A stretch of DNA of 64,000 nt from a phage. The number at the start of each line of letters is the position of its first letter. The stretch's first letter is position 1. Positions 8,132-47,859 of this stretch are shown here, one piece after another. The notes under the pieces were generated by a model, which was not told the origin of the DNA, did no database searches, and saw only the letters and a list, made by a program, of their open reading frames with translations. The stretch lies in assembly GCA_027263115.1 (NCBI GenBank), contig GCA_027263115.1_3656.1; one strand, 5' to 3'. The position numbers and the translations under genes are program-made.

Positions 8132-8406
8132 CTATGATGAAGGCATGTGGTAATGTATATTACGTCGGTGAACATGTTCAGGCAGACAGTGTGTGGAAAT
8201 CTATTAAGTCCACCACTGACGATGCCTTTCTGAGTGGACTATGTTTCCCCAATCCGGGAGACATCCTCCCTCATCCTGGAGATTTTGTTGTCAACAAGAT
8301 GGACGGTTATACCGTGTGCCTGATGGTTGAAAAAATCTTTTTAGACACTAGACACAATCACCGTCTTGTGTTAAAATTTCAAGAATGTAAAATGACAATT
8401 GCCTAA
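8128..8406 (+). CDS. hypothetical protein
   Basis: 92-aa ORF, ATGA overlap. Confidence 0.5.
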   Translation: MTMMKACGNVYYVGEHVQADSVWKSIKSTTDDAFLSGLCFPNPGDILPHPGDFVVNKMDGYTVCLMVEKIFLDTRHNHRLVLKFQECKMTIA

Positions 8407-8419
8407 GGAGACCTTACCG

Positions 8420-8776
8420 ATGTCTAAAGTTACTTATCGTGCAGCTATTTACTGCAATGAACACCCAATCAATAATGATGGTCACTGCCTTTTTAAAGAA
8501 AATCAATTGGGCTGTATTGTCCTCCCTGATGAAGGGGAAGGTTATCTGATTGCATTGACAGGGTTTGAACCTGAGGCTCTGGAAGCCAATCTGGACTACC
8601 TGGTAGAAGAGGGTGCTGCAGACCTGGTTGCCAATGGCCTCTCCATAAGCCTTGACGAAGTAGAGCGCTTCATGGGCAATTACCGTGTAGTGCGTGAGTT
8701 TACTATCGAGGTGGAAACTCCCGAGTGGGGTAGCCATGAAACTAATGCCGAAGAAAAAGAAGAGGAGGTAGAATAA
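8420..8776 (+). CDS. hypothetical acidic protein
   Basis: ATG preceded by AAGGAGA; track start 8399 is a TTG and less likely. Confidence 0.5.
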   Translation: MSKVTYRAAIYCNEHPINNDGHCLFKENQLGCIVLPDEGEGYLIALTGFEPEALEANLDYLVEEGAADLVANGLSISLDEVERFMGNYRVVREFTIEVETPEWGSHETNAEEKEEEVE

Positions 8777-19355: not shown

Positions 19356-19362
19356 CACTAGG

Positions 19363-19389
19363 CCCTGCCCGAAAGGGTGGGGCTTTTTG
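19363..19389 (+). terminator. intrinsic terminator
   Basis: gccctgccc-gaaa-gggtggggc hairpin with GNRA-type loop followed by TTTTT; identical hairpin recurs at 31012. Confidence 0.7.
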
Positions 19390-31011: not shown

Positions 31012-31040
31012 GCCCTGCCCGAAAGGGTGGGGCATTTTTG
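31012..31040 (+). terminator. intrinsic terminator
   Basis: same gccctgcccgaaagggtggggc hairpin as at 19363, followed by ATTTTTG. Confidence 0.7.
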
Positions 31041-34839: not shown

Positions 34840-35110
34840 GCAGCTTTCCAAGTACTCGATCTGTTTTTCGTTTCAAAGATTGAATTTTCTGAAAATTTTT
34901 CTCGATAAATTTCTCAGTACTCGATCTGTTTTTCGTTTTCTGAATCTGATTTTCTGGAAATCGTTCCGGCTCTCGACCTGAAATTTTTGGGGACGAAATC
35001 GATTTTTCGTTTTCAGAAATGGATTTTTAAAATTTCTATATGGGAATATTTTAGTGGATACTATTTTATAGGAAATTGTTACGGAGGGTAATTAGCGTGC
35101 TAATTAAATT
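34840..35110. repeat. non-coding direct-repeat region
   Basis: 23-bp direct repeat agtactcgatctgtttttcgttt at 34851 and 34916; tttttcgttttc motifs; palindrome taattagcgtgctaatta at 35089-35106. Confidence 0.6.
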
Positions 35111-35175
35111 TATTAAATGCGAGGAGTTCTCATTTAGAATTTTGAATGATAATCATTCTCGTTTGCAGAATAACG

Positions 35176-35198
35176 GGCAGGCCCGGTGATTGTCTCCC
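35176..35198 (+). repeat. copy A of palindromic ggcaggcccggtgattgtctccc element
   Basis: 23 bp identical to the reverse complement of part of 44620-44662. Confidence 0.6.
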
Positions 35199-35314
35199 GG
35201 CCCCTACTGCCCCGGCTTGTTATTATAGTAACACACAGGACAAAGAAAGCAAGAAGTTTTTGCATAAATTTTTAGACGATAATGATAATCGTTCTCATTT
35301 CATGCAGCGCCCAT

Positions 35315-35351
35315 CCCCGGTGGTTGTCTCCCCCGTCACCGGTGCCTGCCG
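35315..35351 (+). repeat. copy B of the same palindromic element (right half)
   Basis: ccccggtggttgtctcccccgtcaccggtgcctgccg, about 90 percent identical to the reverse complement of 44620-44662. Confidence 0.55.
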
Positions 35352-35554
35352 TCCTTTCGATAGGTATATTTTGCCACCTGGCGGGGCCGCTGTCAACACT
35401 TTTCAAAAAAATTTCTAACCTGATGCGCTGACCGCTGCAACCTGGCGGGGCCAGCCTGGCAGGGCCTAACTGACCAGGTAGGAGAGAATGAAGGCTTGCA
35501 AACCTGGTGGGCCTATGCTATAGGATAGGTAACAATTGAAGAGGAGGTACAAAA

Positions 35555-35731
35555 ATGGAAGGTAATATGATCCCCCTGGAAAATGTAGCTATTAATGACG
35601 CTGAGGCTATCGCCCTGGTTGAAAAGGCTATGGCGGGAGCGTTGGAACATAAAGAAGAGTACGAAAAAATGATGGTTAACCTGGCAGGGGCGGCGGCTGG
35701 AGAATTCTACCCAAAAAATAATTTTAACTAA
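35555..35731 (+). CDS. small hypothetical protein (58 aa)
   Basis: ATG 8 nt after GAGGAGG; below the ORF-track length cutoff. Confidence 0.45.
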   Translation: MEGNMIPLENVAINDAEAIALVEKAMAGALEHKEEYEKMMVNLAGAAAGEFYPKNNFN

Positions 35732-35734
35732 TGG

Positions 35735-35763
35735 TTGACAGCTCGGACAGTTCTTGTTATTCT
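35735..35763 (+). promoter_or_regulatory. sigma70-type promoter
   Basis: TTGACA-17nt-TATTCT. Confidence 0.5.
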
Positions 35764-35816
35764 TATCCTCGCAAGGTGAACAACACCACACTAATTAACA
35801 GAGAGGATAAAAAATC

Positions 35817-36014
35817 ATGAACGCCTACGGAATTAAAGTACGTCGCAACACTCGCCAGGTGGTCACCAATCAAGTGATTTGCCGGGTGGATGTAACCATC
35901 AACAACGGGCAAGGCCTTTATAAATTTCGTCGCGGTCATAGCTATACCCTGCAACAGCTTAACCGTTGCGCCCTGACAAAAGGTCAGATCAACCACTGGT
36001 TTAATAAAAAATAA
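35817..36014 (+). CDS. hypothetical protein
   Basis: 65-aa ORF with AGAGAGGA RBS. Confidence 0.55.
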   Translation: MNAYGIKVRRNTRQVVTNQVICRVDVTINNGQGLYKFRRGHSYTLQQLNRCALTKGQINHWFNKK

Positions 36015-36016
36015 TG

Positions 36017-36045
36017 TTGACATATGGTCTGACACAAAATACACT
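36017..36045 (+). promoter_or_regulatory. sigma70-type promoter
   Basis: TTGACA-17nt-TACACT. Confidence 0.55.
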
Positions 36046-36077
36046 GAAATCGCAAAAGACACTAAGAGGATAAAATC

Positions 36078-36476
36078 ATGAAAACCACTACCTTTAATTT
36101 TGATAATGCGGACTTTTCTTTTTCTGATGTCAAGAACTGCCGCCGTGATCGTGGATTTTACAAGGCTTATAATCTGGTGGGCCTGGACGATGACAATAAT
36201 TTGCACGAAGTAGCTGAGATCCGGTATTATGCCGCCGCCAGTGGTAACACTCACTACTGCGTGTTTTGGATTCACGACAACAAGAACAATAAGTACGGTT
36301 ATACTGGCGGCAAGGCGAGCGGTCACGGTTACGATAAAGCTAACGCAGCACTTGAGAGTGCATTAAATGCTATGGGGATCACTGCCGACGGCTGGATCTA
36401 CGAAGAAGAGTTTTTGTCGGCACTTGCTGACCACCTGGGCTATAAAAAGCACATTGTGACATGCGCCCACGAATAA
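36078..36476 (+). CDS. hypothetical protein
   Basis: 132-aa ORF with AAGAGGA RBS. Confidence 0.55.
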   Translation: MKTTTFNFDNADFSFSDVKNCRRDRGFYKAYNLVGLDDDNNLHEVAEIRYYAAASGNTHYCVFWIHDNKNNKYGYTGGKASGHGYDKANAALESALNAMGITADGWIYEEEFLSALADHLGYKKHIVTCAHE

Positions 36477-36483
36477 AAATCAT

Positions 36484-36511
36484 TGACACGCTGCAAAATT
36501 TAAGTAAACTA
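36484..36511 (+). promoter_or_regulatory. sigma70-type promoter
   Basis: TTGACA-16nt-TAAACT. Confidence 0.55.
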
Positions 36512-36558
36512 GACACAAAAGGCGGGGATGTTTCCCGCCAGCACAAAGGAAAAAGATC

Positions 36559-36954
36559 ATGAATAAGAACGTACGCCGCATCATGAACGAACTGGCAAAC
36601 GATGAAAAAATTATTGACATGCATTTATTCAACATTTGCCGCCGTTGTGTAACATATAACAACCGCGCCGCAAAAGCGCGTGAGATGAATGCGAAAGGCA
36701 CCTTAAAGCCCTTTCAGGTGGTTGTAAAATCTATAACCAGTGCAGCAGGCCAGGCGCATGACCACAACAACGAGAGCGCTAATATTGATCCGTCTTACGT
36801 AATGAAACGGATCCGGACTTGCAAGAATAAAGAGCAGGTGTATAACGTCATAGATTGGCTGGACTCCCTGGGTGATGTGGTTTACAATAGGTTTTCTGCA
36901 GCTATCGAGATCCAGCTTGACAGATTGGACGGGAAAGTACTGAAAACTTACTGA
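36559..36954 (+). CDS. hypothetical protein
   Basis: 131-aa ORF with AAAGGAAA RBS. Confidence 0.55.
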   Translation: MNKNVRRIMNELANDEKIIDMHLFNICRRCVTYNNRAAKAREMNAKGTLKPFQVVVKSITSAAGQAHDHNNESANIDPSYVMKRIRTCKNKEQVYNVIDWLDSLGDVVYNRFSAAIEIQLDRLDGKVLKTY

Positions 36955-37002
36955 GTTTATTTTTAGATGGCCTTGACTCCAGGGCCATCAATAAAGTAAA
37001 CT
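36955..37002 (+). promoter_or_regulatory. repeated palindromic promoter-like element, copy 1
   Basis: tttatttttagatggccttgactccagggccatcaataaagtaaac; 7-bp stem gatggcc/ggccatc with TTGACT in the loop and TAAACT about 18 nt downstream. Confidence 0.5.
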
Positions 37003-37033
37003 AACCACAGTTGAGCGGAAAGGGGGCTTAAAG

Positions 37034-37153
37034 ATGAGTACTACACGCCAGCACACAAAGGTAACTATTATCGTTTGCATCATTGGTTACATCCTGGCGC
37101 AAATGTTGATGGGTAGCGCCAACGGTATCGCAAAATTTTTCTTAAACTTTTAA
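37034..37153 (+). CDS. small hydrophobic peptide (39 aa)
   Basis: AAAGGGGG RBS; predicted single TM helix; C-terminal SANGI motif shared with the 43512 peptide. Confidence 0.4.
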   Translation: MSTTRQHTKVTIIVCIIGYILAQMLMGSANGIAKFFLNF

Positions 37154-37181
37154 TTGACAAGCTAACTTAGATCAGTATACT
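37154..37181 (+). promoter_or_regulatory. sigma70-type promoter
   Basis: TTGACA-16nt-TATACT. Confidence 0.65.
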
Positions 37182-37231
37182 AAACACATAAACGGGAAAA
37201 CTTCCCAGAACACACAAAAGGAGAAAACACC

Positions 37232-37573
37232 ATGACTACTATGACCGCCGCAGAAAAAGCTATGCAGATCGCCGCGCTGAAAAAACAGATCGCAGACCTT
37301 GAGAATAAGATCGATAACTTTGAAATCGACGAGGACAAGTACGACGAAAACTATGATGAATGGTTAGACGAGATCTACGGCGAAATTATGATCGGAAACA
37401 TTTCTTTTCTTCCGTCGCGTATCCTCAAGGAGCTAGATCCTATCGCTTACCGCTGCGGATTTAGCGACTACATCGACAGCTTGGATATTGAGGACGATGA
37501 AGAATACCAGGAATTGCATACAGAGCTTGAAGAAGTGAAAGAAGAGCTTGCAGAACTGGAAGAAAACGAGTAA
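37232..37573 (+). CDS. hypothetical acidic coiled-coil protein
   Basis: 113-aa ORF with AAGGAGA RBS. Confidence 0.55.
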   Translation: MTTMTAAEKAMQIAALKKQIADLENKIDNFEIDEDKYDENYDEWLDEIYGEIMIGNISFLPSRILKELDPIAYRCGFSDYIDSLDIEDDEEYQELHTELEEVKEELAELEENE

Positions 37574-37620
37574 ATTTATTTTTAGATGGCCTTGACTCCA
37601 GGGCCATCAATAAAGTAAAC
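37574..37620 (+). promoter_or_regulatory. repeated palindromic promoter-like element, copy 2
   Basis: identical to the 36955 element; immediately follows a stop codon. Confidence 0.5.
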
Positions 37621-37662
37621 TTTATACTGTTAACACTGAACTAATGCATAGGAGTTAAAACC

Positions 37663-37908
37663 ATGGCAGCACTAATCACCAAATATTATGCCCCTACCAA
37701 CACCAAAAGCGCCCGTATCATGGTAAAAGGCTTCGGACGTAAAAAGGTTTACACCTGGGATTATGCCTTAGACACGGAAGACAACTACACCAACGCGATG
37801 ACCGATTTTATTAATGACCTGAACACGCGGATCTTGACAAATTATCAAATTACCGATATTGCCTATATAGGGGAAGGCGGGATCTGTTTTGTCGGTATCG
37901 TCAAATAA
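37663..37908 (+). CDS. hypothetical protein
   Basis: 81-aa ORF with TAGGAG RBS. Confidence 0.55.
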   Translation: MAALITKYYAPTNTKSARIMVKGFGRKKVYTWDYALDTEDNYTNAMTDFINDLNTRILTNYQITDIAYIGEGGICFVGIVK

Positions 37909-37983
37909 GCTGGTTTTTCGGTGGTCCTGGTAGCAGGGCCATCTATAAAGATAGTTTATCAACACAATGAAAGGAGAAAGTAC

Positions 37984-38331
37984 ATGATCAGCGGGGCTAG
38001 TTTTATTATTGGCGCTATTGCTACGGCTTTAATTGTAAACAAGATCCAGGATAAAAAGGAAAGTACCGCCCTTGCAGAATATCCATTTTGGACATTCAAC
38101 GATAATGAAGATTATATTATAAAGTATAAAAATAAAGAAGGTGACCAAGTAACACCGCGACCGATCCCGGCTTACAAAATGCAGGAAACACTGTACCGCC
38201 TGGAAGCGGGGGGCGCAAAAATTGTAGACTTTTGGGGATACGATCACACAGATCAGGAAGTTATAAAGCGCCGTATCCGGGCTATTCAGGCCAATATTGA
38301 AGTTAGCAAGGGGGGAATATATGAAGATTAA
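37984..38331 (+). CDS. hypothetical membrane-anchored protein
   Basis: ATG after AAAGGAGA; N-terminal hydrophobic helix; track start 37921 less likely. Confidence 0.5.
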   Translation: MISGASFIIGAIATALIVNKIQDKKESTALAEYPFWTFNDNEDYIIKYKNKEGDQVTPRPIPAYKMQETLYRLEAGGAKIVDFWGYDHTDQEVIKRRIRAIQANIEVSKGGIYED

Positions 38332-38518
38332 TTTTGAGAAGATTGTAAAGCGATCTCATGATTCCGAAGATCTGCCGGAACGACGCCAGCGTAACAATAA
38401 ACTGAATAAGCCAAAAAGATTTGGGAAGATCTGGCGAAATCATTATGATCGTAAACTGCCGGGCCTGCTTTTGGAACGTGAACGACAGGCGGAACGATAC
38501 CGCCACAAAGACAAATAG
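38321..38518 (+). CDS. small basic protein
   Basis: ATG after AAGGGGGG; Arg/Lys-rich. Confidence 0.45.
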   Translation: MKINFEKIVKRSHDSEDLPERRQRNNKLNKPKRFGKIWRNHYDRKLPGLLLERERQAERYRHKDK

Positions 38519-38526
38519 CAACCAAC

Positions 38527-38551
38527 GCCCCGCCATTGTGCGGGGCTTTTT
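38527..38551 (+). terminator. intrinsic terminator
   Basis: gccccgc-cattgt-gcggggc hairpin followed by TTTTT. Confidence 0.7.
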
Positions 38552-38698
38552 ATTTCTATCCCGCCGATAGCGCCCCTGGTTGGCCCTACAAGCGCCATAA
38601 AGGCCCCTACCTATGCAATCCCCTTTATTAACCTGAAAACATCGCCCAGGGCCGTTTTATGGTGTTAAAATATTATTGATAGTTATTTTATTTAAAGC

Positions 38699-38727
38699 TT
38701 GACACCTTGGAATAGTCCGGATATACT
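38699..38727 (+). promoter_or_regulatory. sigma70-type promoter
   Basis: TTGACA-17nt-TATACT. Confidence 0.65.
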
Positions 38728-38762
38728 AACCACATCAAAGCAAGAAGGAAGGAGTAAACGCC

Positions 38763-39032
38763 ATGCGTAAATTAAAAAATTTTGATAAAGTTGATATTGT
38801 CCTGAATAATTTTTACTACTGCAATAACAAGGCCGTTTGGTGGCGTGATAGTTCCACCGATAAAGTCAAGGCGCGCTTTCTCCAGGGGCACTGGCAAGGC
38901 CGCCCAGTGATTAAAATCATGGGGCAATTGGTAGCGTTTAAAAATTGCCGCCGTGTTGATGACGTTGAAGAGATTTTAAACATTTTGCGCCACAATAATT
39001 TAAAAATAGTGTTGACAAGTAAATCTCAATAA
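38763..39032 (+). CDS. hypothetical protein
   Basis: 89-aa ORF with AAGGAAGGAG RBS. Confidence 0.55.
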   Translation: MRKLKNFDKVDIVLNNFYYCNNKAVWWRDSSTDKVKARFLQGHWQGRPVIKIMGQLVAFKNCRRVDDVEEILNILRHNNLKIVLTSKSQ

Positions 39033-39039
39033 GTATAAT
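39012..39039 (+). promoter_or_regulatory. sigma70-type promoter
   Basis: TTGACA-16nt-TATAAT, overlapping the 3-prime end of the preceding gene. Confidence 0.65.
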
Positions 39040-39096
39040 TAAAAACACAGGCGGGAAAACTTACCGCCACTAACAAAGAAAACAGGAGAAAATATC

Positions 39097-39720
39097 ATGA
39101 CCACCGTTAACATTACCACAGGTTGCAATTTATCTTTCGACGTGCTGACCGACGAACAAAAAGAAAAAGCTATTGAAATGGTCCGCGAAAGAGAAGAACA
39201 CAGCGGAGAGGATTTTTTCGCAGAAAGTGTAATTGAATATTATAAAGAACAAGTTTTTCCAGAGTACGGCCTTGAAGATACCGATGTACATTGGTCCGGC
39301 TTTTGGTGCCAGGGTGACGGCGCGTCAATCAGTGCTGAAAACGTGGATTTAGAAAAATTCTTGCGTAAAGTAAAGGCCCTGACCAAGTTCCGATCAATTC
39401 GTCACTTGTTTGGCACAATGCACGATGGCGAGTTATCAGCCAGTATTGAACGCGACAAGTACAGCCATTACAGCCATGAAAACACTGTAAGCGGATACAT
39501 TGATACCACCTGGCTAGATCTGACCGCCAAACAAGAAAACAAAGTGGAAGACCTGGAAGAGCTGATCACCGAGACGGTACGGGAGCTATCCCGCAAGGTT
39601 TACGTAGACCTGGAGGAGGCCTATCTAGAACAGTTCACTACCGAAAACCTGATCGGCCTTATTGAGGCCAATGATTGGCGGTTTGATGTGGATGAATATG
39701 GAGAGATGAGTTTTTCATAA
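39097..39720 (+). CDS. hypothetical acidic protein
   Basis: 207-aa ORF with CAGGAGA RBS. Confidence 0.55.
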   Translation: MTTVNITTGCNLSFDVLTDEQKEKAIEMVREREEHSGEDFFAESVIEYYKEQVFPEYGLEDTDVHWSGFWCQGDGASISAENVDLEKFLRKVKALTKFRSIRHLFGTMHDGELSASIERDKYSHYSHENTVSGYIDTTWLDLTAKQENKVEDLEELITETVRELSRKVYVDLEEAYLEQFTTENLIGLIEANDWRFDVDEYGEMSFS

Positions 39721-39809
39721 ATAAAGTGTTGCAATAATCTAAAAACCTGCTATATTAAAACTCAAGGGGGCAAGACGTTTGCCCCACACAAAACAAAGAG
39801 GAAAACATT

Positions 39810-40190
39810 ATGAAAAACACTACTAAAGCTATTGACACCGTTATGTTTAACCTGGTTACCTTTCGCGAGGATATGAAAGATCTTCCACGTGAAACAGTGT
39901 GCGATCACATTGAAAACTATCGCAAACTAATCAAAGAGTTGCCTTTAAAACGTGACCAGTATGCGGCTAACGCTATGCTCAACGCCATGATCAAAAAGAT
40001 GATTCAGTGTGATTTAACCCTGGCCTATGATTATGCAGGTGGTCGTTTTGCAGTATACAATCAGCCCGTGCCTGGTATGGGCACCACCGAAGAATTGCAC
40101 GCGCTCAATCTAAAACAAGACGTGTGGGATAGTATGCCCCGCGTGGTGGTGTGGGCAGAAAGCGGAAAGATTTACGGCGATAATTTTTAA
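39810..40190 (+). CDS. hypothetical protein
   Basis: 126-aa ORF with AAGAGGA RBS. Confidence 0.55.
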   Translation: MKNTTKAIDTVMFNLVTFREDMKDLPRETVCDHIENYRKLIKELPLKRDQYAANAMLNAMIKKMIQCDLTLAYDYAGGRFAVYNQPVPGMGTTEELHALNLKQDVWDSMPRVVVWAESGKIYGDNF

Positions 40191-40197
40191 TCAGGTA

Positions 40198-40228
40198 ACA
40201 GGCGGCATATTTGCCGCCTTATTGTTAA
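40198..40228 (+). terminator. intrinsic terminator
   Basis: ggcggcatatttgccgcc hairpin followed by TTATTGTT. Confidence 0.6.
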
Positions 40229-40254
40229 ACAGAACTGCAAAAGAGGTACATAGA

Positions 40255-40626
40255 ATGGAATTTATTATTTTGGCCGTATTAGTTGCCTTGTTTAACGCCT
40301 GGATCGCTGGCAAGATGGGTAGATCCGCCTTTTTATGGTTTATTATATCTATTTTCCTGGGGGTGGTTTCAACTATTGTACTTGTTATCCTTGCAATTGT
40401 TGACAAAGGTGATAATAGAAAGGGTAAAGTATTTTCCGACCTGTATGACGCGCAAACATTTGTCAACGCCTATTATAGTGATCTTCCAGTCTCCCTACGC
40501 TGCAGCCTTGCACAACAGGTTTTCGATGAAGCTAAAACCAGAGATCACGCCCATGAGATTTGTTTAACTGAGGCGGATCGCCTATTTGAGAGGAATAGAA
40601 AATATGTGGGCCAGCCGTTTAAATAA
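40255..40626 (+). CDS. hypothetical membrane protein
   Basis: start at internal Met of track ORF 40222-40626 after AAAGAGG; two predicted TM helices. Confidence 0.5.
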   Translation: MEFIILAVLVALFNAWIAGKMGRSAFLWFIISIFLGVVSTIVLVILAIVDKGDNRKGKVFSDLYDAQTFVNAYYSDLPVSLRCSLAQQVFDEAKTRDHAHEICLTEADRLFERNRKYVGQPFK

Positions 40627-40849
40627 TACCACGTTAATTAATCCCTTTGATGAAGATTTGAAGCCAGCCGCCTGGCGTGATGGATTCAATAACGAACGCT
40701 TTATTTTCAGGCCTGATCTTAAGGAATTTTATAACAATGGATCGAACAACGACAGAGATAATTTTTCTTGTGATGTGCGTGGTGATGGTACTCCTGGGGG
40801 CCATTGTAAACCACGTCACTACTACCAGGATGAAAGGGGGAGACGATGA
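40604..40849 (+). CDS. hypothetical protein
   Basis: ORF; start uncertain between 40586 and 40604. Confidence 0.45.
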   Translation: MWASRLNNTTLINPFDEDLKPAAWRDGFNNERFIFRPDLKEFYNNGSNNDRDNFSCDVRGDGTPGGHCKPRHYYQDERGRR

Positions 40850-40965
40850 CAACCAAGGATAAGCCCCGCACCGATAAGGTGCGCCGGGTTATGGTATGGC
40901 TTGAGATCATCGCCCTTGAAATATTGTTAGGCGTAGGGATGTATTTTATCGCTGTAAGTAACTGA
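40846..40965 (+). CDS. small hydrophobic peptide (39 aa)
   Basis: ATGA overlap with upstream stop; predicted TM helix. Confidence 0.4.
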   Translation: MTTKDKPRTDKVRRVMVWLEIIALEILLGVGMYFIAVSN

Positions 40966-40968
40966 TAA

Positions 40969-41010
40969 CGGCCCCCGATCCCTGGGGGCCTAACTTTTTA
41001 AAATTTTTTT
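40969..41010 (+). terminator. intrinsic terminator
   Basis: ggcccccgatccctgggggcc hairpin followed by a T-rich tract. Confidence 0.65.
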
Positions 41011-41106
41011 TCTCCCTGAGTGTTGCAATCCGATCCAGAATATGGATAATAATAATCAACGGGGAGCTAATCCCCACCAACACAAAAACCAGAAAGGAGA
41101 AACAAA

Positions 41107-41307
41107 ATGAGCAACAATATCCGCGTTATTAACTTCAAAAAAGAAGAAAAAATTGCCGTGCTGATTGACGGTCAAGAAATCTTCAAGGGCTATTATGAAG
41201 ATCATCAAACGGCGATTAGTATCACTCGCGTGATTGGTTACCATAATTTTTACCCCCAAGGCGCTGAGGCGGCGGTTAAACGAATCAAAGAGATTGTAGG
41301 CCTGTAA
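41107..41307 (+). CDS. hypothetical protein
   Basis: 66-aa ORF with AAAGGAGA RBS. Confidence 0.55.
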   Translation: MSNNIRVINFKKEEKIAVLIDGQEIFKGYYEDHQTAISITRVIGYHNFYPQGAEAAVKRIKEIVGL

Positions 41308-41355
41308 AATTTATTTTTAGATGGCCTTGACTTCAGGGCCATCAATAAAGTAAAT
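41308..41355 (+). promoter_or_regulatory. repeated palindromic promoter-like element, copy 3
   Basis: variant of the 36955 element (ttgacttcagggcc); immediately follows a stop codon. Confidence 0.5.
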
Positions 41356-41400
41356 TTAAACCCTGTTAAAAGACCACGCAGTTAACAAGGAGTGATAGAC

Positions 41401-41700
41401 ATGTTTATCCAGGCTAATAATCTTTATTTCTTTGATGGTCAGATCGTAGATGGTGTGGAAGTGGAGATCACCGGGTGCCCTGGCGGTCAGGCTATGACTT
41501 TTCGGAATAATGCCTTTGATGATTCTCATATCGTTATGAGAATGGAAGTTACGAAGCTGGACGACAAGAAAACACTTATTGACTATTCTGTGAAAGATCA
41601 TCCAGACTACCACATGATCTATGGTGATTTGTGCGTTGTTGACCGTGACAAGGTGGGCGGCATTGTGATCGCTATTGTGAACGATGTTTTCTCAAACTAA
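41401..41700 (+). CDS. hypothetical protein
   Basis: ATG after AAGGAGTG; track start 41392. Confidence 0.55.
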   Translation: MFIQANNLYFFDGQIVDGVEVEITGCPGGQAMTFRNNAFDDSHIVMRMEVTKLDDKKTLIDYSVKDHPDYHMIYGDLCVVDRDKVGGIVIAIVNDVFSN

Positions 41701-41717
41701 TTTCAGCAGGTGATTTT

Positions 41718-42068
41718 ATGAAAATAAAACTATATTACCTTAATGAGCTTAACCCCCTTGCCCAGGTCCGCGCCATAGCTAATACCTTGATTTGTGAGAA
41801 ATCTGTATATTGTGTTGAGCTTAACGCCATGCGTGAACGTCTCAAAGGTGGTTACTTTGACATCCATACTGCAATCAACGGCCTGAATATGGAATTTATA
41901 CGCTTACGTAACAGCCGCTGGAATCTGGCAAGAATGGAACAAGATCCGGCCTACCTTCGTAAGCTGGTTATTGAAAATCATCTGATGTTTAATGCCGAGG
42001 GTGATTATTACCATTTTCACCGCAGACGCTGGTACCGTGGCGGCAATACAGGCAAGAATGCAAAATAA
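41718..42068 (+). CDS. hypothetical protein
   Basis: 116-aa ORF. Confidence 0.55.
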   Translation: MKIKLYYLNELNPLAQVRAIANTLICEKSVYCVELNAMRERLKGGYFDIHTAINGLNMEFIRLRNSRWNLARMEQDPAYLRKLVIENHLMFNAEGDYYHFHRRRWYRGGNTGKNAK

Positions 42069-42103
42069 GGCCCCTAGCAGGGCCTGCAGCAATATAATCA
42101 CAT

Positions 42104-42136
42104 AAAGGCCATGCAACCGCATGGCCTTTATTATTT
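42104..42136 (+). terminator. intrinsic terminator
   Basis: aaaggccatgcaaccgcatggccttt hairpin followed by ATTATTTT. Confidence 0.65.
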
Positions 42137-42270
42137 TGGCGTTACAACGGCATACGGGGCGCTTAAAAAATTTTTAAAGAAGTACTTGCATCATTCCCGA
42201 CAATATGGATAATAAGAGTTGTCGAGGGGGAGGCCCCCAATCGTTGACCAGATAGATAGGAGTTAAAATC

Positions 42271-42555
42271 ATGGCTATTGTTACCGCTGGCGATGTAGTA
42301 GAAATGGAAGCAAAATACTTAAAAGCGGGTATGCACATCCTACGGAATGATCAAGAGTTATTATTAACGATGGTTGACTATAATCCCGGCCAGGATTATC
42401 CAAGCATCGACTACTTTTTTGAGTATGTTGATGAAGAGTTGAAAGAGGATGAGGCATATTGCGGTGAGTTCTGCAACTTCTTTTGTCCTGATGAGGTTGT
42501 AAAGGTTATTTATCAACCTGGCGTACCTTTCCCACTGCACGCTATCAATAAATAA
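42271..42555 (+). CDS. hypothetical protein
   Basis: 94-aa ORF with TAGGAG RBS. Confidence 0.55.
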   Translation: MAIVTAGDVVEMEAKYLKAGMHILRNDQELLLTMVDYNPGQDYPSIDYFFEYVDEELKEDEAYCGEFCNFFCPDEVVKVIYQPGVPFPLHAINK

Positions 42556-42609
42556 ACCTGGCGGGGCCGAAAAGGCCCCAATTATGAAAATAAAGAGAGG
42601 TAAATCATC

Positions 42610-42843
42610 ATGATGGAACAAATTAAACGCGCTGAGGCTATTAATGGCAATGTGATCTATTTTGTCAGCAAAAACGAAAAAGGCGTACCATATGCGGCGG
42701 TAATAGTACAACCTGACGGCGATTATTGGTTTACTGTGTACGGCGCTTATTCTTTTGGGCGTCCAGTGCATGATAAAATTTTGAAAGTAGCGAACCCTAC
42801 CGGGAAGAATATCACAGCAGAAAAATTTTTTGAAAATAGTTGA
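42610..42843 (+). CDS. hypothetical protein
   Basis: 77-aa ORF with AGAGAGG RBS. Confidence 0.55.
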   Translation: MMEQIKRAEAINGNVIYFVSKNEKGVPYAAVIVQPDGDYWFTVYGAYSFGRPVHDKILKVANPTGKNITAEKFFENS

Positions 42844-42868
42844 CATGACCATATAAGACTGTAATATA
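42840..42868 (+). promoter_or_regulatory. sigma70-type promoter
   Basis: TTGACA-17nt-AATATA. Confidence 0.5.
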
Positions 42869-42918
42869 TAAATCAAAGGGGGCAACAAGCCCCACCAACC
42901 ACAAAGAGGATAAAAATC

Positions 42919-43098
42919 ATGGCTATTATTGCAAAGACTGAGATCGTAGGCTTAGATTCTATTCTACTCGCATATGAGGAAGCTATAGAAATGTATGTGG
43001 TTTCCTACGGTGAATATATCCGTGAATATAAATCTATTGATCTAGCTTTTGAATGTTATATTCGCCAGGTCAATAAAGCATATGATGATTATCGTTAA
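42919..43098 (+). CDS. small hypothetical protein (59 aa)
   Basis: ATG after AAGAGGA; below ORF-track cutoff. Confidence 0.45.
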   Translation: MAIIAKTEIVGLDSILLAYEEAIEMYVVSYGEYIREYKSIDLAFECYIRQVNKAYDDYR

Positions 43099-43189
43099 AA
43101 TAGTTTGACAACAAACAACCATCTAACAAAGCATAATACATAAGGTGGTAGAATGATCCGCCACCTGGAACAAAGAAGAGGTAAACACC

Positions 43190-43435
43190 ATGAAAAGCAA
43201 TAAAGGTTATAACGGTTACAAAAACAAAACTCATTGGAATGTAAGCCTTTGGATTAATAACGATGAGTCATTGTACCGGTTGGCCCAAGGCTTTATTAAC
43301 GCCAATGCTAATCGTAATGATGCGGCGCGGGATATGATGCTTTTTCTGGAGCTAACCGGACAAGATAAGACCCCGGACGGCTTCAAGTACAGCACTACGG
43401 CGATCCGTGCCGCGATGGTTGGAATGAAACACTAA
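43190..43435 (+). CDS. hypothetical protein
   Basis: 81-aa ORF with AAGAGG RBS. Confidence 0.55.
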   Translation: MKSNKGYNGYKNKTHWNVSLWINNDESLYRLAQGFINANANRNDAARDMMLFLELTGQDKTPDGFKYSTTAIRAAMVGMKH

Positions 43436-43511
43436 AAGCATATAGCCGCCTTACCCTGGGGCCGCTGCTACGGCCCCATGAATAAGGTTACTAACAGAAG
43501 AGAATAAACAC

Positions 43512-43616
43512 CATGAAACAAAAATTAATTGATGCTGTGATCCTGGTTATTGCCTTAGGTATTGGCCTGATTGCAACCATGGCTAATGTGATCTTGTCTT
43601 CCAACGGTATCGGGTG
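43512..43616 (+). CDS. small hydrophobic peptide (34 aa)
   Basis: predicted TM helix; C-terminal SSNGIG similar to the 37034 peptide. Confidence 0.4.
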
Positions 43617-43626
43617 AGGTTGACAA

Positions 43627-43842
43627 ATGATCACTAACAAAACAGGAAAAACAGAATTTTTACGCAACTTACAGATCGGCAAGCCTGAGATCTGGCATTG
43701 CACTAAAACACCACGTGACGAAATGAAAGACTTCACCGCCACGCTGCAACGGGTAAAGATATCCATCACGCAGAAAAAGGCCTTGCTAGTGGTGGAAGGT
43801 GAGATCCCCCAAACCGTTGTTATAGTTGAGCGTACAGCATAG
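43627..43842 (+). CDS. hypothetical protein
   Basis: 71-aa ORF. Confidence 0.5.
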   Translation: MITNKTGKTEFLRNLQIGKPEIWHCTKTPRDEMKDFTATLQRVKISITQKKALLVVEGEIPQTVVIVERTA

Positions 43843-43933
43843 TTTAATTTATAGAGATACCTGAAAATTAACCAATAAAGCATAAACAGGCGGTTACCGC
43901 CGCCTTAAACGTAGCAGAAAGAGGATAGACACA

Positions 43934-44218
43934 ATGAAAAAGATGATCGCAGTGGTTGCCCTAGTTGTTGGACTTAATGCGCCTGTAATGGCTAAAGAGC
44001 TGGCAAAAGAGGTTAATCTAACGGATATTCATGCCGTCAATCAAATCGGGGTTACTTATCGCTTATGCCTTGCCGCTAAAACTTTTAATGACGGCACAAC
44101 AGAGTACTACGGATTCGAGGGTATCCGGTGCGGTGAGCTTGCTCGCGACCTTAAGGAAGATCCAGATCTGGAAGATCTACCCATCACCGTAAACGGTAAA
44201 GCTTACGTAAACCGTTAA
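43934..44218 (+). CDS. hypothetical secreted protein
   Basis: signal-peptide-like N-terminus MKKMIAVVALVVGLNAPVMA; AGAGGA RBS. Confidence 0.55.
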   Translation: MKKMIAVVALVVGLNAPVMAKELAKEVNLTDIHAVNQIGVTYRLCLAAKTFNDGTTEYYGFEGIRCGELARDLKEDPDLEDLPITVNGKAYVNR

Positions 44219-44220
44219 CC

Positions 44221-44355
44221 ATGAGAAAGATAATCATCACCTTGGGGATTGTGGTAGCAATACTGGCGCTCTTTCCCCTTATGGTTAGGTATGTGCTGAT
44301 CAGTGTTGTCCTGATAGTCAGCGATCTATTGGAAACGGTTGGCACCTTGTTTTAA
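44221..44355 (+). CDS. small hydrophobic peptide (44 aa)
   Basis: two hydrophobic segments; begins 2 nt after upstream stop. Confidence 0.4.
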   Translation: MRKIIITLGIVVAILALFPLMVRYVLISVVLIVSDLLETVGTLF

Positions 44356-44368
44356 AGAGCGATAAAAA

Positions 44369-44560
44369 ATGAATATCGAACAAGTTAGAAAGGTATTAGC
44401 GGTACTGCGTTATCATAATCATAGAAAGGTCATAGACGATCCTGATTATGTTGATTCAAGTCTAGAAGAGGATACACTACAAGCCATAAGTAACATGCAA
44501 GAATTGCTAAAGCGCATGACAGAGAAAAACAGACCGGACTACATAGGCGAAAAAATATAA
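44369..44560 (+). CDS. hypothetical protein
   Basis: 63-aa ORF. Confidence 0.5.
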   Translation: MNIEQVRKVLAVLRYHNHRKVIDDPDYVDSSLEEDTLQAISNMQELLKRMTEKNRPDYIGEKI

Positions 44561-44578
44561 TATTTATAAACTACAAAA

Positions 44579-44606
44579 CAGGGCTTGCAATGGCCCTGTT
44601 TTTGTT
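44579..44606 (+). terminator. intrinsic terminator
   Basis: cagggc-ttgcaatg-gccctg hairpin followed by TTTTTG. Confidence 0.7.
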
Positions 44607-44619
44607 ATACTTATTCTAC

Positions 44620-44662
44620 GGCAGGCACCTGGCGACGGGGGGAGACAATCACCGGGCCTGCC
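44620..44662 (-). repeat. copy C (inverted, complete) of the palindromic ggcaggc...gcctgcc element
   Basis: reverse complement begins ggcaggcccggtgattgtctccc (identical to 35176-35198) and continues like 35315-35351. Confidence 0.6.
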
Positions 44663-44687
44663 TGTCATACAAGAACTATAAAAACCG

Positions 44688-44716
44688 TTGACATCTGCCA
44701 TGGGGTGGGGTAACAT
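44688..44716 (+). promoter_or_regulatory. sigma70-type promoter
   Basis: TTGACA-17nt-TAACAT. Confidence 0.6.
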
Positions 44717-46244: not shown

Positions 46245-46269
46245 AAGGGGCTTAGGCCCCTTTCTTTTT
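46245..46269 (+). terminator. intrinsic terminator
   Basis: aaggggc-ttag-gcccctt hairpin followed by TCTTTTTG. Confidence 0.7.
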
Positions 46270-46880
46270 GTCTGATCTTCCCCCTACCATAAACGGCCCT
46301 ACCTGGCAAGTGGAATAATTGACGAGCCATCAACCCCACACACTGTACAAATATACATGTAAAATAACTATTGCATAACTTTTCATTGTGTGGTAGCAGG
46401 GCTATTTTTACCCGTTTTTCCTTCCAAAATTGCACGTAATGCAGCTATTGCACAAAATTTAACCTGATGCATATCTTCAGTGTCTTGTCAACAACTAAAA
46501 ATCTTTATAAGTCATGCACTTACATAACCACAAAAGCGTGCTCTACGTGAAAAATCGAGTATAACTATAGCCGCCAGATCTCAGAATTTACGTACGCTCA
46601 CCATTCTATAGTCTGCTAAGTATTTATTCCAACCATAGAATAACGGAATAGTCAATACCTGCATAAAATAATTATTCGTGTAAACTGCATAACATAAATC
46701 AGCTTAGGTGTCAACATTTTTCGTAAACAGTCTGAAATTATCACGATGAGTTATCATAAACAGAGAAATCTTTAGTCGTCTAATGTTTACTGTACGTTAC
46801 TATACTAACTGAAATCATTAGATGACTAATAGAAAGATAAGAAATAATTAACAATACAATTATTTTATCTGTAACAATAA

Positions 46881-47166
46881 GGCAACTATGCAAACGAATG
46901 GCATGGCGCGACGGAGTCGCGACATAATATAAAAGCAGTAACCATCACCCCCGTGATAGTTTGTCTGCAATCTATTAATCAGATCATAGTTGCCTTGTAT
47001 TTAGTTAATCATGACATAACAAGCAAGGCAACTATAGATCTGCTAATAGTTGCCCTGCTTTTATATTATGTCATAGGAACGCCCGAAGGGGTGACCTAGT
47101 CACCTGGCATAGCCAGCGAAAGATTATTAACTTGGTAATAGTTATCATGCAAACGAATGGCATGGC
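46881..47166. repeat. nested inverted-repeat structure flanked by 20-bp direct repeats
   Basis: direct repeat atgcaaacgaatggcatggc at 46888 and 47147; 18-bp inverted repeat gacataatataaaagcag (46921) vs ctgcttttatattatgtc (47055); 12-bp inverted repeat atagttgccttg (46986) vs caaggcaactat (47024). Confidence 0.6.
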
Positions 47167-47177
47167 TTATCATCTCT

Positions 47178-47300
47178 GTGTAAACAGTCAATCATGTAAA
47201 CTATTAGATATGTAAACAGTAAAGGGCGTGAACAGTAAGCGAGGGAATAGTAATAGCGTGAATAGTGACAGCGTAAACAGTGACAGCGTAAACAGTCAGG
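47178..47300. repeat. iteron-like GTAAACAGT repeats
   Basis: at least six copies of GT(A/G)AA(C/T)AGT, including two tandem 15-bp units gacagcgtaaacagt at 47267-47296. Confidence 0.6.
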
Positions 47301-47400
47301 CATGTCAATTATGTCATATTGTGTCACCATTATGTCACTATTGTGTCACCAGTATGCCCAGTATGTCAATTGAGTCTAAAGTGTCAAAGGTGTCAGACAA
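47301..47400. repeat. 10-bp-periodic TGTCA tandem array
   Basis: about ten units (catgtcaatt, atgtcatatt, gtgtcaccat ...) each containing TGTCA or a near variant at helical-turn spacing. Confidence 0.6.
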
Positions 47401-47859
47401 GTTTTTCTCCTCTTTGTCAAGTGCTGCATGAAAAATTTACAAGCTTGTATGGTAGCATTTTTGCGGCCCGTTTACATTCAGTGATGTATGTATAACCCTT
47501 GTTGTGTGGGAGTTTAGACGTCTAGACGGTTGGAAGTCTGCAGGTCAATATCTAATCTATCGGCTGCTAACTATATCCCACACAAATAGTAAGAAATATA
47601 ATTGTTATATGTGTAAACAGTAACTCATGTTATCAATCCCTGTATGGATCGCCAGTGGTGCGCATAATGGGTATTATGTTAAATTGCCCGTAATGATAAC
47701 AGTTCTCACAATGATAGGTATTCTCATTCATCCACACAAAATAGGTTGCAAATGTTGTGCCACTGTGTGAACGGCCTGGCCTATTAATTTCTCTCACTGC
47801 CTCGATATTTGAGGATTGTTATAAGAATGAGAAGTATTCCCATTCCGTCCGCCTGGCAG

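Follow-up and report, generated by a model that had tools for sequence, protein, structure and literature searches.

Results

The window, a 64,000-nucleotide stretch of DNA analyzed over its whole length, belongs to an rV5-like coliphage (Vequintavirus) and carries an array of small early genes. We identified three copies of a conserved element in and beside this array. Copy E is located at 44620-44662 on the + strand, within a full conserved leader at 44612-44675 and with an invariant core, GGAGACAATCACCGG, at 44641-44655. Copies c1 (leader 35162-35225, core 35182-35198) and c2 (leader 35301-35353, core GGAGACAACCACCGG at 35317-35331) are on the - strand. The core sequence GGGAGACAATCACCGGG of E (44640-44656, +) recurred with no mismatch at 35182-35198 (-) and with one mismatch at 35316-35332 (-); 0.11 matches were expected from dinucleotide shuffles, none of which reached three. 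A repeat search returned two inverted pairs, 35170-35198/44640-44668 (29 nt, 93%) and 35316-35334/44638-44656 (19 nt, 95%). When a sequence-only model built from 30 homologues was run on the 64-kb window, E, c1 and c2 scored 60.6, 51.2 and 33.0 bits, respectively, and the next matches reached at most 6.2 bits. These are exactly the three places described in the first-pass annotation, and its estimate of about 90 percent identity for c2 was fair (a hand alignment with E, 39 columns long and containing 2 gaps, gave about 87%). The array, on the other hand, does not end at E as had been thought, but continues through four further small genes to 46226.

Occurrence of the element was limited to these three places in 64 kb and to 1-4 places per relative genome, so that it is not scattered at random. 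Relatives with the same array keep it, as do more distant subfamilies: the module was detected in Vequintavirinae, Stephanstirmvirinae and two unrelated viral contigs. This restriction and conservation bear out the earlier suggestion of a regulatory, non-random element. In nine genomes of two subfamilies (rV5, isim, HdK5, JES2013, FV3, Murica, CarlMeissner, nepoznato and Mt1B1_P17), the region of c1 and c2 (c-region) and E were separated by 7.8-10.5 kb and differed in neither order nor relative orientation, and no inversion was seen among them. Searches of Rfam gave no match to the element, and searches of Pfam with 28 ORFs of the array and neighboring early genes detected neither a recombinase or invertase nor a DNA-binding domain. 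The feature appears to be undescribed so far, and we found no transcript data for these phages in the literature searched.

All three copies were directly 3′ of a sigma-70-type promoter, in the same relative orientation. We examined 30 instances from Vequintavirus, Certrevirus, Seunavirus, Mydovirus, Phapecoctavirus, Justusliebigvirus and two unrelated IMG/VR contigs, and in 29 of them the -10 hexamer ended 22-30 nt upstream of the core. The best sense promoter matches had a mean of 8.5/12, whereas antisense candidates scored lower (7.1) and were spread over 0-47 nt. The copies seem inverted only because the sense strand is + for E and - for c1 and c2.

The E promoter (44575-44611, +) is embedded in the terminator of the gene upstream of E, whose hairpin was placed by a terminator scan at 44575-44602 (+). 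Its -35 element, TTGCAA (44585-44590), is in the hairpin loop, and its -10 element, TATACT preceded by TGT (44606-44611), ends 8 nt before the E hairpin; these positions were identical in all E-type homologues. Four terminator-promoter cassettes of the same early array (family D1; 36953, 37572, 37907 and 41307) likewise place the -35 in the loop of the terminator before it, with the 3′ arm of the hairpin serving as a GC-rich spacer. Unlike E, they lack the leader core, which is present on three promoters only. A second, gene-proximal promoter (44688-44716, +; TTGACA-17-TAACAT; P168 in the rV5 annotation) serves the gene starting at 44771, so that two promoters stand in tandem and E is the leader of the upstream one; its transcript is predicted to run on into mRNA.

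The c1 promoter (35222-35252, -) consists of TATAAT (35227-35222) and TTGCTT (35252-35247) with a 19-nt spacer, and its -10 ends 24 nt upstream of the core; TTGACA is found at the site of this -35 in homologues L014 and L097. The c2 promoter (35368-35396, -) is TTGACA-17-CAAAAT with TG upstream. Both point leftward, away from the array, with no leftward gene ahead. The terminator scan of the window showed numerous intrinsic terminators in the early array, nearly every one followed by its own promoter, but none behind any of the three copies and none on the - strand past c1 and c2. A different layout was observed on contig L078, where one copy is followed along from promoter through core and AU-rich stretch to an intrinsic terminator, implying that the element there is transcribed as the 5′ end of an RNA.

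What is invariant in the element is an asymmetric core, GAGACAAnCACC(G)G, with UGCCCGYUAUUC at a constant distance 3′ of it (...GGAGACAAnCACCGG...UGCCCGYUAUUC in the RNA sense). Among the 30 instances, AA.CACC was invariant, GAGA and GG were at least 90% conserved, and the distance from CACC to UAUUC differed in a single sequence, by 1 nt; GGAG of the core becomes GCGAG or GAAG in some homologues. The palindromic arms, in contrast, varied among at least three sequence classes: c2 has arms of the E type, and those of c1 (GGGCAG/CUGCCC) are unlike them. Thus, of the "palindromic element" reported earlier, the copies are real, but conservation resides in the core and not in the arms. Purine-rich and similar to a Shine-Dalgarno sequence, the core is not followed by a start codon; it resembles the ribosome-binding sites of this phage, e.g., AGGAGAAAACACCATG at 37232.

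Predicted minimum-energy folds paired the 5′ with the 3′ flank of the core in the 26 instances from Vequintavirinae, Stephanstirmvirinae and contig L013. The mean z-score was -1.09 for the sense strand versus -0.62 for the antisense strand, and E gave -23.8 kcal/mol (z = -2.4). In several homologues the stem was held only by sense-strand G-U pairs, as in KpS11 (-17.5 versus -8.6 kcal/mol). The GC-rich arms of Vequintavirus are predicted to be able to close a stem-loop beginning a few bases from the predicted transcription start, and this stem sequesters part of the core. Per-sequence z-scores were modest, the four L078/L054 copies folded poorly (z = +1.1 to -0.6), and RNAalifold found no consensus structure for all 30 sequences; structure alone, therefore, cannot be the selected feature.

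Predicted Fur boxes follow both c-type copies. The box after c1 (GAATGATAATCATTCTC, 35144-35160) begins about 20 nt past the c1 leader in the sense of the - strand and agrees with the 19-bp E. coli consensus at 15/19 positions (35142-35160); an identical palindrome occupies the same place in phiTE, KpS11, 4MG and others. The box after c2 (GATAATGATAATCGTTCTC, 35278-35296) matches 17/19 of the consensus GATAATGATAATCATTATC, a score found 0 times in 100 shuffles. One to four candidate Fur boxes followed the c-type leader in every genus examined, and candidates also followed the E-type leader in CR3, DU_PP_IV and GEC_vB_MG. The 7-1-7 dyad TGATAATnATTcTCA and tandem groups of 1-4 are as in strong Fur sites of the aerobactin iucA type. 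Unlike known Fur operators, these boxes are in the genome of a virulent phage, and they lie downstream, at about +55 to +95, whereas classical Fur repression covers the -35/-10 region. The boxes also hold -10-like hexamers, so an alternative for c2 is a Fur-repressed promoter on the + strand (predicted TTGCAT-18-GATAAT, 35260-35289) reading into the array.

Recurrence of the motif ACCTGG(C/T)GGGCC was real (8 observed versus 2.2 expected with up to 2 mismatches), but the positions first given for it (35377, 35439, 35492 and 42548) were off by 1-10 nt. Exact 13-mers are at 35376, 35440 and 42556, and a copy with one mismatch is at 35502. The three copies at 35376-35514 (+) are each preceded by a TTGCAA-like hexamer (TTGCCA, CTGCAA and TTGCAA, respectively). 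The first, ACCTGGCGGGGCC at 35376-35388, is the reverse complement of the c2 promoter spacer, and the third is the GC-rich spacer of a promoter-like TTGCAA-17-TATAGG before the gene at 35555, the first of the array. In sequence the motif is similar to the left arm of E (CACCTGGCGACGGGG), and analogous GC-rich spacers were present in homologous promoters of other genera (TTGCAA-CCTGGGGCC). A CpxR-like box, GTAAA-N5-GTAAA, was also found in other genera, just upstream of the -35. The fourth copy (42556-42568, +) follows the stop codon of a gene that ends at 42555 and provides the 5′ arm of the hairpin GGGGCC-GAAAA-GGCCCC. Leftward-downstream of c1 and its Fur box are three iteron-like direct repeats of AGTACTCGATCTGTTTTTCGTTT (34842-35027; families D2 and D7); phiTE and contig L142 have 5-8 GGGTCTCGATC repeats at the equivalent place.

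Discussion

The three "palindromes" are best read as the first 50 or so transcribed bases behind host-type promoters, that is, as parts of a conserved module of promoter and leader, in places with a putative Fur operator, that works in cis, and not as recombination sites bracketing a cassette. Candidate mechanisms are a 5′ stem-loop leader, a pause or antitermination-type signal, a small RNA and a DNA operator.

Unlikely, but the foremost of the alternatives, is a double-stranded DNA operator formed by the core (about +15 to +45), by which a phage early protein or a host protein would shut off or co-regulate the three promoters; this corresponds to the regulator-binding sites suggested in the first-pass annotation. 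Its invariant sequence and nearly indel-free spacing to a second conserved block (TGCCCGYTATTC) would suit an operator, its position would suit roadblock or promoter-escape repressors, and sites for other host factors adjoin it (the predicted Fur boxes, and the CpxR-like box of other genera). However, a core with no dyad symmetry between variable symmetric arms is the opposite of a dimeric repressor site, an operator need not keep a strict orientation to its promoter, and the 28 early ORFs lacked a Pfam DNA-binding domain.

Rather improbable is a signal that would modify the elongating RNA polymerase, as nascent RNA or non-template DNA, and provide a site of pausing and loading for an elongation or antitermination factor from host or phage. 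Promoter-proximal leader signals that modify polymerase include lambda nut (boxA/boxB), HK022 put and RfaH ops/JUMPStart. These are short, orientation-dependent, conserved elements that follow early or operon promoters and recur several times in a genome, and the core here is likewise orientation-dependent, an asymmetric invariant 12-16-mer that occurs once in each transcription unit at a fixed distance past the promoter. Elemental pauses have the consensus G(-10)...Y(-1)G(+1), which a near-invariant G, the last C of CACC and the next G would fit. The early array is rich in intrinsic terminators, but read-through is not obviously needed since nearly all of them have their own following promoter, and the - strand past c1 and c2 has none in the scan. 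A likeness to boxA is loose (a hairpin, then the conserved single-stranded block CGCUAUUC, 6/8); no boxA, boxB or ops match was seen by inspection, Rfam gave none, no candidate factor was identified, and the element shows no evident dependence on terminators further along.

A small trans-acting RNA, with the core as seed and a conserved target in the host (Enterobacterales) or phage, is quite doubtful. The L078 layout is the usual one of enterobacterial small RNAs, the element is present in multiple copies per genome, its core is conserved across phages of different hosts, and the predicted Fur boxes suggest iron-linked expression. However, no window copy is followed by a terminator, E continues into mRNA, the Vequintavirus stem hides part of the proposed seed, and complementary targets of at least 10 nt in the window were limited to the element's own antisense and one 10-mer (8354-8363, non-coding strand).

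It is very improbable that the c-region, about 9% from the physical left end, is a boundary or origin element, i.e., a T5-like stop/restart point of DNA entry, or a source of transcripts that prime or activate an origin (compare T4 oriF/oriG and the T7 primary origin). Short direct terminal repeats have been reported in related phages (PMC6563267; PMC9862379), and the 459-bp repeat of HdK5 maps to window positions 47391-47853, which places the early array 1.6-12.3 kb and the c-region 12.3-13 kb from that end. The c-region combines inward-firing promoters and leaders, predicted Fur boxes, an AT-rich stretch and iterons; c1 and c2, which the iterons follow, have the only promoters identified in that stretch that point into the rest of the genome. 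Like the T5 first-step-transfer repeats and injection stop signal (bioRxiv 10.1101/866236, Davison), it is untranslated and highly conserved, contains inverted repeats, palindromes, direct repeats and boxes for host proteins, and borders a group of small early genes that occupies about 8-9% of the genome beside a terminal repeat. At least 8 tandem Fur-box-like repeats are present in the T5-like DT571/2, in a terminal-repeat region thought to hold the stop signal. However, there is no sequence homology to the T5 region, the terminal repeat here is 0.46 kb versus 8-10 kb in T5, and two-step entry, a T5 feature, is conjectural for rV5-like phages. DnaA boxes are not enriched, GC skew is featureless at 35 kb, iterons are absent from the corresponding site in Mydovirus, one report describes rV5-like genomes as circularly permuted (PMC8407724), and E and E-type copies before ordinary genes would be left unexplained.

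Recombination sites for inversion or excision of the 9-kb block are hardly credible: the inverted copies are 9.4 kb apart and nearly identical, but over 23-29 bp only, their orientation follows their own promoters, c1 and c2 face away from the array and E is inside it, order and orientation are constant in all nine genomes, and no Pfam recombinase is in or next to the block.

Stabilizers of mRNA offer another comparison for the cis module. The ompA 5′ UTR of E. coli is a 5′-terminal stem-loop stabilizer, and cryIIIA STAB-SD of B. subtilis is a Shine-Dalgarno-like one. The element resembles these in having a hairpin a few nucleotides from the predicted start and a Shine-Dalgarno-like core with no start codon. 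However, such stabilizers need structure or a Shine-Dalgarno sequence, and a plain stabilizing hairpin does not explain the invariant 12-16-nt core and fixed-length 3′ segment. In addition, c1 and c2, unlike these stabilizers, precede no gene, so that stabilizing an mRNA has no obvious beneficiary there.

For the cis module, we tentatively favor a leader combining stem-loop, core and Fur-gated read-through, a mechanism to which we give somewhat less than an even chance. Each copy would make up about +1 to +60 of the transcript from a host sigma-70 promoter that probably fires, and would act, as RNA rather than DNA, in cis on its own transcription unit. The stem-loop would present the purine-rich, Shine-Dalgarno-like core, and together the 5′-terminal stem-loop and invariant core may mark, stabilize and possibly pause the early transcript. 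The iron status of the host would then control read-through at c1, c2 and most homologues, by way of Fur bound at the boxes that lie 8-30 nt farther along.

Occurrence of the element and identity of the region

A search with the 12 kb around the element matched 297 phage records, and identity to rV5-like coliphages (Vequintavirus: FFH2, rV5, isim, HdK5 and others) was 93-96%. In the rV5 annotation, successive small hypothetical genes (ORF 209 to 164) occupy this region, together with a few sigma-70 promoters and terminators, and the sole annotation over the element is a 'hypothetical protein', ORF 198, covering 35.15-35.42 kb. A 17-nt core, GGGAGACAATCACCGGG, was found at 44640-44656 on the + strand (copy E, 44620-44662) and on the - strand at 35182-35198 (copy c1) and, with one mismatch, at 35316-35332 (copy c2); shuffled sequences gave 0.11 matches. 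Both inverted pairs were also recovered by a repeat finder, and a sequence-only model of 30 homologues scored the copies at 60.6, 51.2 and 33.0 bits, with the rest of the 64 kb at or below 6.2 bits. The three-copy element of the first-pass annotation is therefore real and non-random. The motif search detected it in three places only in the 64 kb, and these are syntenic in relatives, so that it is neither randomly scattered nor absent there. Literature searches turned up no Fur boxes or leader motifs for these phages, and the rV5 genome paper is silent on both; as far as could be searched, the element is undescribed. From sequence comparison, the best description is a conserved promoter-leader module in three copies, with coupling to predicted Fur operators.

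A dispersed mobile palindrome (REP/BIME or MITE-like) was rejected, since that class needs many non-syntenic copies and presence in the host, and the three copies here are syntenic and have no E. coli homologue. No homologue of the c1 unit was detected in 5,426 E. coli genomes, and a host origin was rejected. The 90-aa ORF at 35146-35418 (+), which runs across both c copies and which rV5 (as ORF 198) and many relatives list as a hypothetical protein, is almost certainly no gene. Its indel lengths are not divisible by three, the core is read in different frames among homologues, and no Shine-Dalgarno sequence precedes the ATG at 35146. Database annotation is corrected accordingly: ORF 198-type 'hypothetical proteins' overlie the element.

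The copies had been proposed to be inverted sites that bracket a 9-kb cassette of small genes and might serve in recombination. Copy E lies inside this array rather than at its end, as genes at 44771, 45104, 45401 and 45807 come after it. The predicted promoters direct transcription of E to the right, along with the array, and that of c1 and c2 to the left, away from it; c1 and c2 are inverted relative to E only because these promoter directions differ. The surroundings of c1 and c2 (the c-region) and E keep their order and relative orientation, 7.8-10.5 kb apart, in nine genomes (rV5, isim, HdK5, JES2013, FV3, Murica, CarlMeissner, nepoznato and Mt1B1_P17), all collinear with the window, which argues against recombination. 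Pfam searches of the 28 array ORFs and their flanks detected no recombinase, integrase or invertase; the only two confident matches in the array were Phage_1_1 (T7 gene 1.1-like) at 38321-38518 (+; E = 9e-12) and DUF7249 at 43190-43435. The idea of an invertible cassette for the early array is thus disposed of.

Promoters upstream of the copies

The feature common to all copies is a predicted promoter of the sigma-70 type, with -35 and -10 hexamers separated by 16-19 nt and the element placed to be transcribed. For E (+ strand), a -35 TTGCAA/CTTGCA is followed by TGT-TATACT, leaving 8 nt between the end of the -10 and the palindrome. The upstream gene's terminator hairpin (44575-44602) precedes E and has the TTGCAA in its loop. 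On the - strand, TTGCTT-19-TATAAT (TATAAT at 35227-35222) is predicted for c1 and TTGACA-17-CAAAAT (35396-35368) for c2. A second promoter between E and the next gene (44688-44716) is P168 of the rV5 annotation. We compiled 30 non-identical instances of the module from rV5, isim, CR3, phiTE, KpS11, Mydo, 4MG, SSE121, KaOmega, ChuuTotoro, DU_PP_IV, GEC_vB_MG, Mt1B1_P17, KKP_3264, PsgM04F and IMG/VR contigs. On the strand reading GGAGACAAnCACC, the distance from the end of the -10 to the core was 22-30 nt in 29 of these 30 homologues; promoter-like matches on the opposite strand were weaker and scattered.

Two further promoter arrangements were observed. Compact terminator-promoter cassettes (GATGGCC-TTGACT-CCAGGGCCATC...TAAACT) occur in four copies, at 36953-37003, 37572-37622, 37907-37957 and 41307-41357, with the -35 hexamer in a hairpin loop, the same design as in the E promoter. 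In Certre-, Mydo-, Seuna- and Phapecoctavirus, GTAAAGAnnnGTAAAGA lies directly upstream of the -35 of c-type copies, i.e., the homologues of c1 and c2 (relatives L004, 1600-1640; L005, 1640-1680; L099; L102; L104). This block matches the CpxR consensus GTAAA-N5-GTAAA and is missing from the window.

A recurrent ACCTGG motif had also been noted near the element. The 13-mer ACCTGGCGGGGCC was indeed present exactly at 35376, 35440 and 42556 and with one mismatch at 35502, and up to two mismatches gave 8 matches versus 2.2 expected. Each + strand copy at 35.37-35.51 kb comes after a TTGCAA-like hexamer, and the last of them forms the spacer of a promoter-like site ahead of the first array gene. 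The copy at 35376, read on its opposite strand, forms the c2 promoter spacer; this GC-rich spacer recurs in homologous promoters of other genera (TTGCAA-CCTGGGGCC), and the motif resembles the left arm of E. We read these copies as putative promoter-spacer or partial-leader modules linked by duplication, not as a separate family of binding sites. A sigma-54 promoter was rejected by inspection because of wrong GG-to-GC spacing, and CCWGG and GATC were clustered no more than the motif itself produces.

Predicted Fur boxes downstream of the leader

Directly past c2 in the transcribed direction, a predicted Fur box (35278-35296, GATAATGATAATCGTTCTC) matches the E. coli consensus at 17 of 19 positions, a score reached by no shuffle, and a second box (35142-35160, GAATGATAATCATTCTC; 15/19) lies past c1. 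Both were scored against the 19-bp consensus GATAATGATAATCATTATC and show its 7-1-7 dyad symmetry. Each genus examined has this palindrome, often unchanged, past its c-type leader, where one to four copies are grouped (four in phiTE and Mt1B1_P17, three in CR3 and KaOmega), and a box is also present past the leader of E homologues in CR3, DU_PP_IV and GEC_vB_MG. In both subfamilies, Vequintavirinae and Stephanstirmvirinae, the order is the same, and the conserved unit consists of a predicted promoter, the leader and one or more predicted Fur boxes, in that sequence.

Relative to the conserved minus-strand promoters, the predicted boxes occupy about +55 to +95, not the classical site over the -35/-10. 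The most plausible reading, which we hold tentatively and with a little less than even confidence, is a cis-acting leader, in which a 5' stem-loop with the invariant core would act in cis on its own transcription unit and Fur at the boxes would gate read-through. Because Fur boxes hold -10-like hexamers, an alternative for c2 is a Fur-controlled + strand promoter: the box overlaps the -10 of the candidate TTGCAT-18-GATAAT (35260-35289), a position that is not conserved in other genera.

Fur-like sequences were also seen elsewhere. Weaker 7-1-7 palindromes (AATGATAACAGTTCTCA, AATGATAGGTATTCTCATT and AATGAGAAGTATTCCCATT) occur in the terminal repeat of the genome, at 47692-47730 and 47826-47845 of the window (positions 12, 30, 128 and 146 of the HdK5 record), less than about 160 bp from the physical end. 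In an IMG/VR scan, the exact 16-mer half-palindrome GAGAATGATTATCATT was detected in at least 120 viral contigs, several with a pair of copies at a distance of 40-120 nt; regulatory regions of phages and prophages may commonly contain Fur boxes.

Conserved core and folding of the leader

In the 30-sequence alignment, AA.CACC was invariant, and GAGA before it and GG after it showed conservation of at least 90%. The distance from there to a second, downstream block, UGCCCG(C/U)UAUUC, is fixed, with an indel (1 nt) between the blocks in a single sequence of the 30. For the flanking palindromic arms, three or more sequence classes could be told apart (GGCAGGC/GCCUGCC, GGGCAG/CUGCCC and AUAGCGGG/CCCGCUAU). 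The conserved part in this alignment is the asymmetric core, not the palindrome. A regulator-binding site, as suggested earlier, is possible. An operator recognized as duplex DNA would be expected to keep its dyad symmetry, but the conserved part lacks it and the symmetric part is variable, and we consider this reading unlikely. The 28 array ORFs had no DNA-binding domain in Pfam.

Several observations concern the RNA. The E fold had a free energy of -23.8 kcal/mol (z = -2.4), and for most instances from Vequintavirinae and Stephanstirmvirinae, single-sequence folds placed a stem around the core, with pairing registers that shift among homologues. RNAalifold gave no consensus structure on the 30-sequence alignment, mean z was modest (-1.09 sense versus -0.62 antisense), and the four copies carried by a 46.8-kb contig that is unrelated (L078/L054) scarcely fold. 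In some homologues, the outer stem is held via sense-strand G-U pairs only (KpS11, -17.5 versus -8.6 kcal/mol), which mildly favours an RNA on the sense strand in these predicted folds. The core resembles a Shine-Dalgarno sequence, like the phage's own ribosome-binding sites (AGGAGAAAACACC-ATG), yet no start codon follows, and its GGAG becomes GCGAG or GAAG in some homologues. RNA polymerase pause sites follow the pattern G(-10)...Y(-1)G(+1), with which the core is compatible. A polymerase signal of the ops, put or nut kind was assigned a low probability, below that of an operator.

A small RNA that would pair through the core stretch GGAGACAAnCACCGG is more doubtful again. Of the features of an Hfq-type small RNA, a predicted promoter is present, but no terminator was found past any of the three window copies: an intrinsic terminator scan called none of them on either strand, and the hairpins are followed by UGUCAUAC and GUUAUUCU (sense) and GGCUUGUUAUUAU (antisense of c1), not by the immediate U tract that, after a GC-rich hairpin, defines a terminator. 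Only one copy, L078a of the unrelated contig, has both its own promoter and its own intrinsic terminator, and no intragenomic antisense target of the core was found. Near-identical terminator-type hairpins (GCCCTGCCCGAAAGGGTGGGGC-TTTT) were observed elsewhere, 11.6 kb apart in a + strand gene block (19362-19388 and 31012-31038).

Known RNA classes gave no identity. Rfam 15 yielded no window match at gathering thresholds (best sub-threshold 15-19 bits versus thresholds of 36-94) and nothing at E-value thresholds, and ARAGORN detected no tRNA or tmRNA. ToxI or pseudo-ToxI, checked since phiTE is a relative, had no match within 9 substitutions. By inspection, a Chi site in the reverse-complement core reached at most 6-7 of 8 positions, and conservation extends past it; the closing pairs of a lambda/P22 boxB GACAA pentaloop are not conserved; and likeness to the rrn leader (AGACAAUC) was treated as chance because the order of elements misfits. 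Neighbouring proteins gave no clue to function, whether the array ORFs, DUF7170 or a conserved 271-278-aa protein encoded upstream in other genera. In relatives, another non-coding block, ACGCCACCCCACGGCGAAAAGGCGGGGCUAAC, is strongly conserved; the small DUF7170 gene, directed leftward, is on one side of it and the c-type promoter on the other (L004, 1690-1730; L005, 1725-1765; L099; L104). This block has its own promoter and pseudoknot-like complementarity, is missing from the window, and may be a second non-coding RNA.

Position relative to the genome end

Short direct terminal repeats are reported for phages of this group, with a length of 458 bp for HdK5 and EdH4 and of 514 bp for KPP-1 (PMC6563267, PMC9862379), and one paper gives circular permutation for rV5-like genomes (PMC8407724). 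In the HdK5 record, the first 459 nt equal the last 459 nt and map to 47391-47853 of the window. The physical genome end is therefore probably close to 47853, within the non-coding region at 46.25-47.9 kb, and the window is probably a collapsed or re-opened form of the genome. From this end, E is 3.2 kb away, the early array 1.6-12.3 kb and the c-region 12.3-13 kb (about 9% of the genome). In that stretch, c1 and c2 have the sole identified promoters directed into the remaining genome; downstream of them lie iteron-like repeats (34842-35027) and an AT-rich stretch, but no gene.

A T5-like two-step entry was retained as a rival because the ~459-bp terminal repeat is shown by two papers and the HdK5 record. 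In the T5-like Escherichia phage DT571/2, at least eight tandem Fur-box-like repeats (AAATGAGAATCATT / AATGATAATCATTCTCATT; 6780-7000 of L141, about 7380-7600 of the record) sit in the untranslated repeat region of the long terminal repeat. Such a T5 region has been discussed as an injection stop signal, with Fur unmentioned (bioRxiv 10.1101/866236). The parallel is suggestive, but an entry boundary leaves copy E unexplained. DnaA boxes were not enriched, and an origin or entry-boundary role seems very improbable.

Two other repeat-containing regions were observed at strand-switches. The large non-coding, low-GC region 46250-47640 contains iterons GTAAACAGT(C/G)A..., ATGTCA/GTGTCAC units at 47300-47400 and GGCAACTAT units, and could be an origin or a packaging region. 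Near 7 kb, at the divergent strand-switch, 1.8 kb is flanked by a perfect 29-nt inverted repeat (6553-6581 / 8415-8443).

Implications for rV5-like phages

Among the commonest coliphage isolates are the rV5-like phages (Vequintavirinae and the related Stephanstirmvirinae). They are therapy candidates, and their early programme is essentially uncharacterised, as almost every one of the about 28 early-array ORFs lacks an assigned function. A non-coding module more conserved across genera than the neighbouring genes points to a control point of this programme. Beyond the cis-acting leader that we tentatively favour, the module might represent an undescribed class of leader signal, with its invariant core read in nascent RNA or non-template DNA, common to virulent enterobacterial phages of two subfamilies and tied to Fur operators; we regard this broader proposal as rather speculative. 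With a leader so tied, host iron status would gate the transcription that leaves the boundary of the initial ~9% of the genome, beside the terminal repeat. In the extreme form of that proposal, the c-region would play the part that the injection-stop and takeover boundary plays in T5. The module is firmly linked to predicted host-type promoters and high-scoring predicted Fur boxes, and if Fur binds, a strictly virulent phage would be sensing the iron status of its host.
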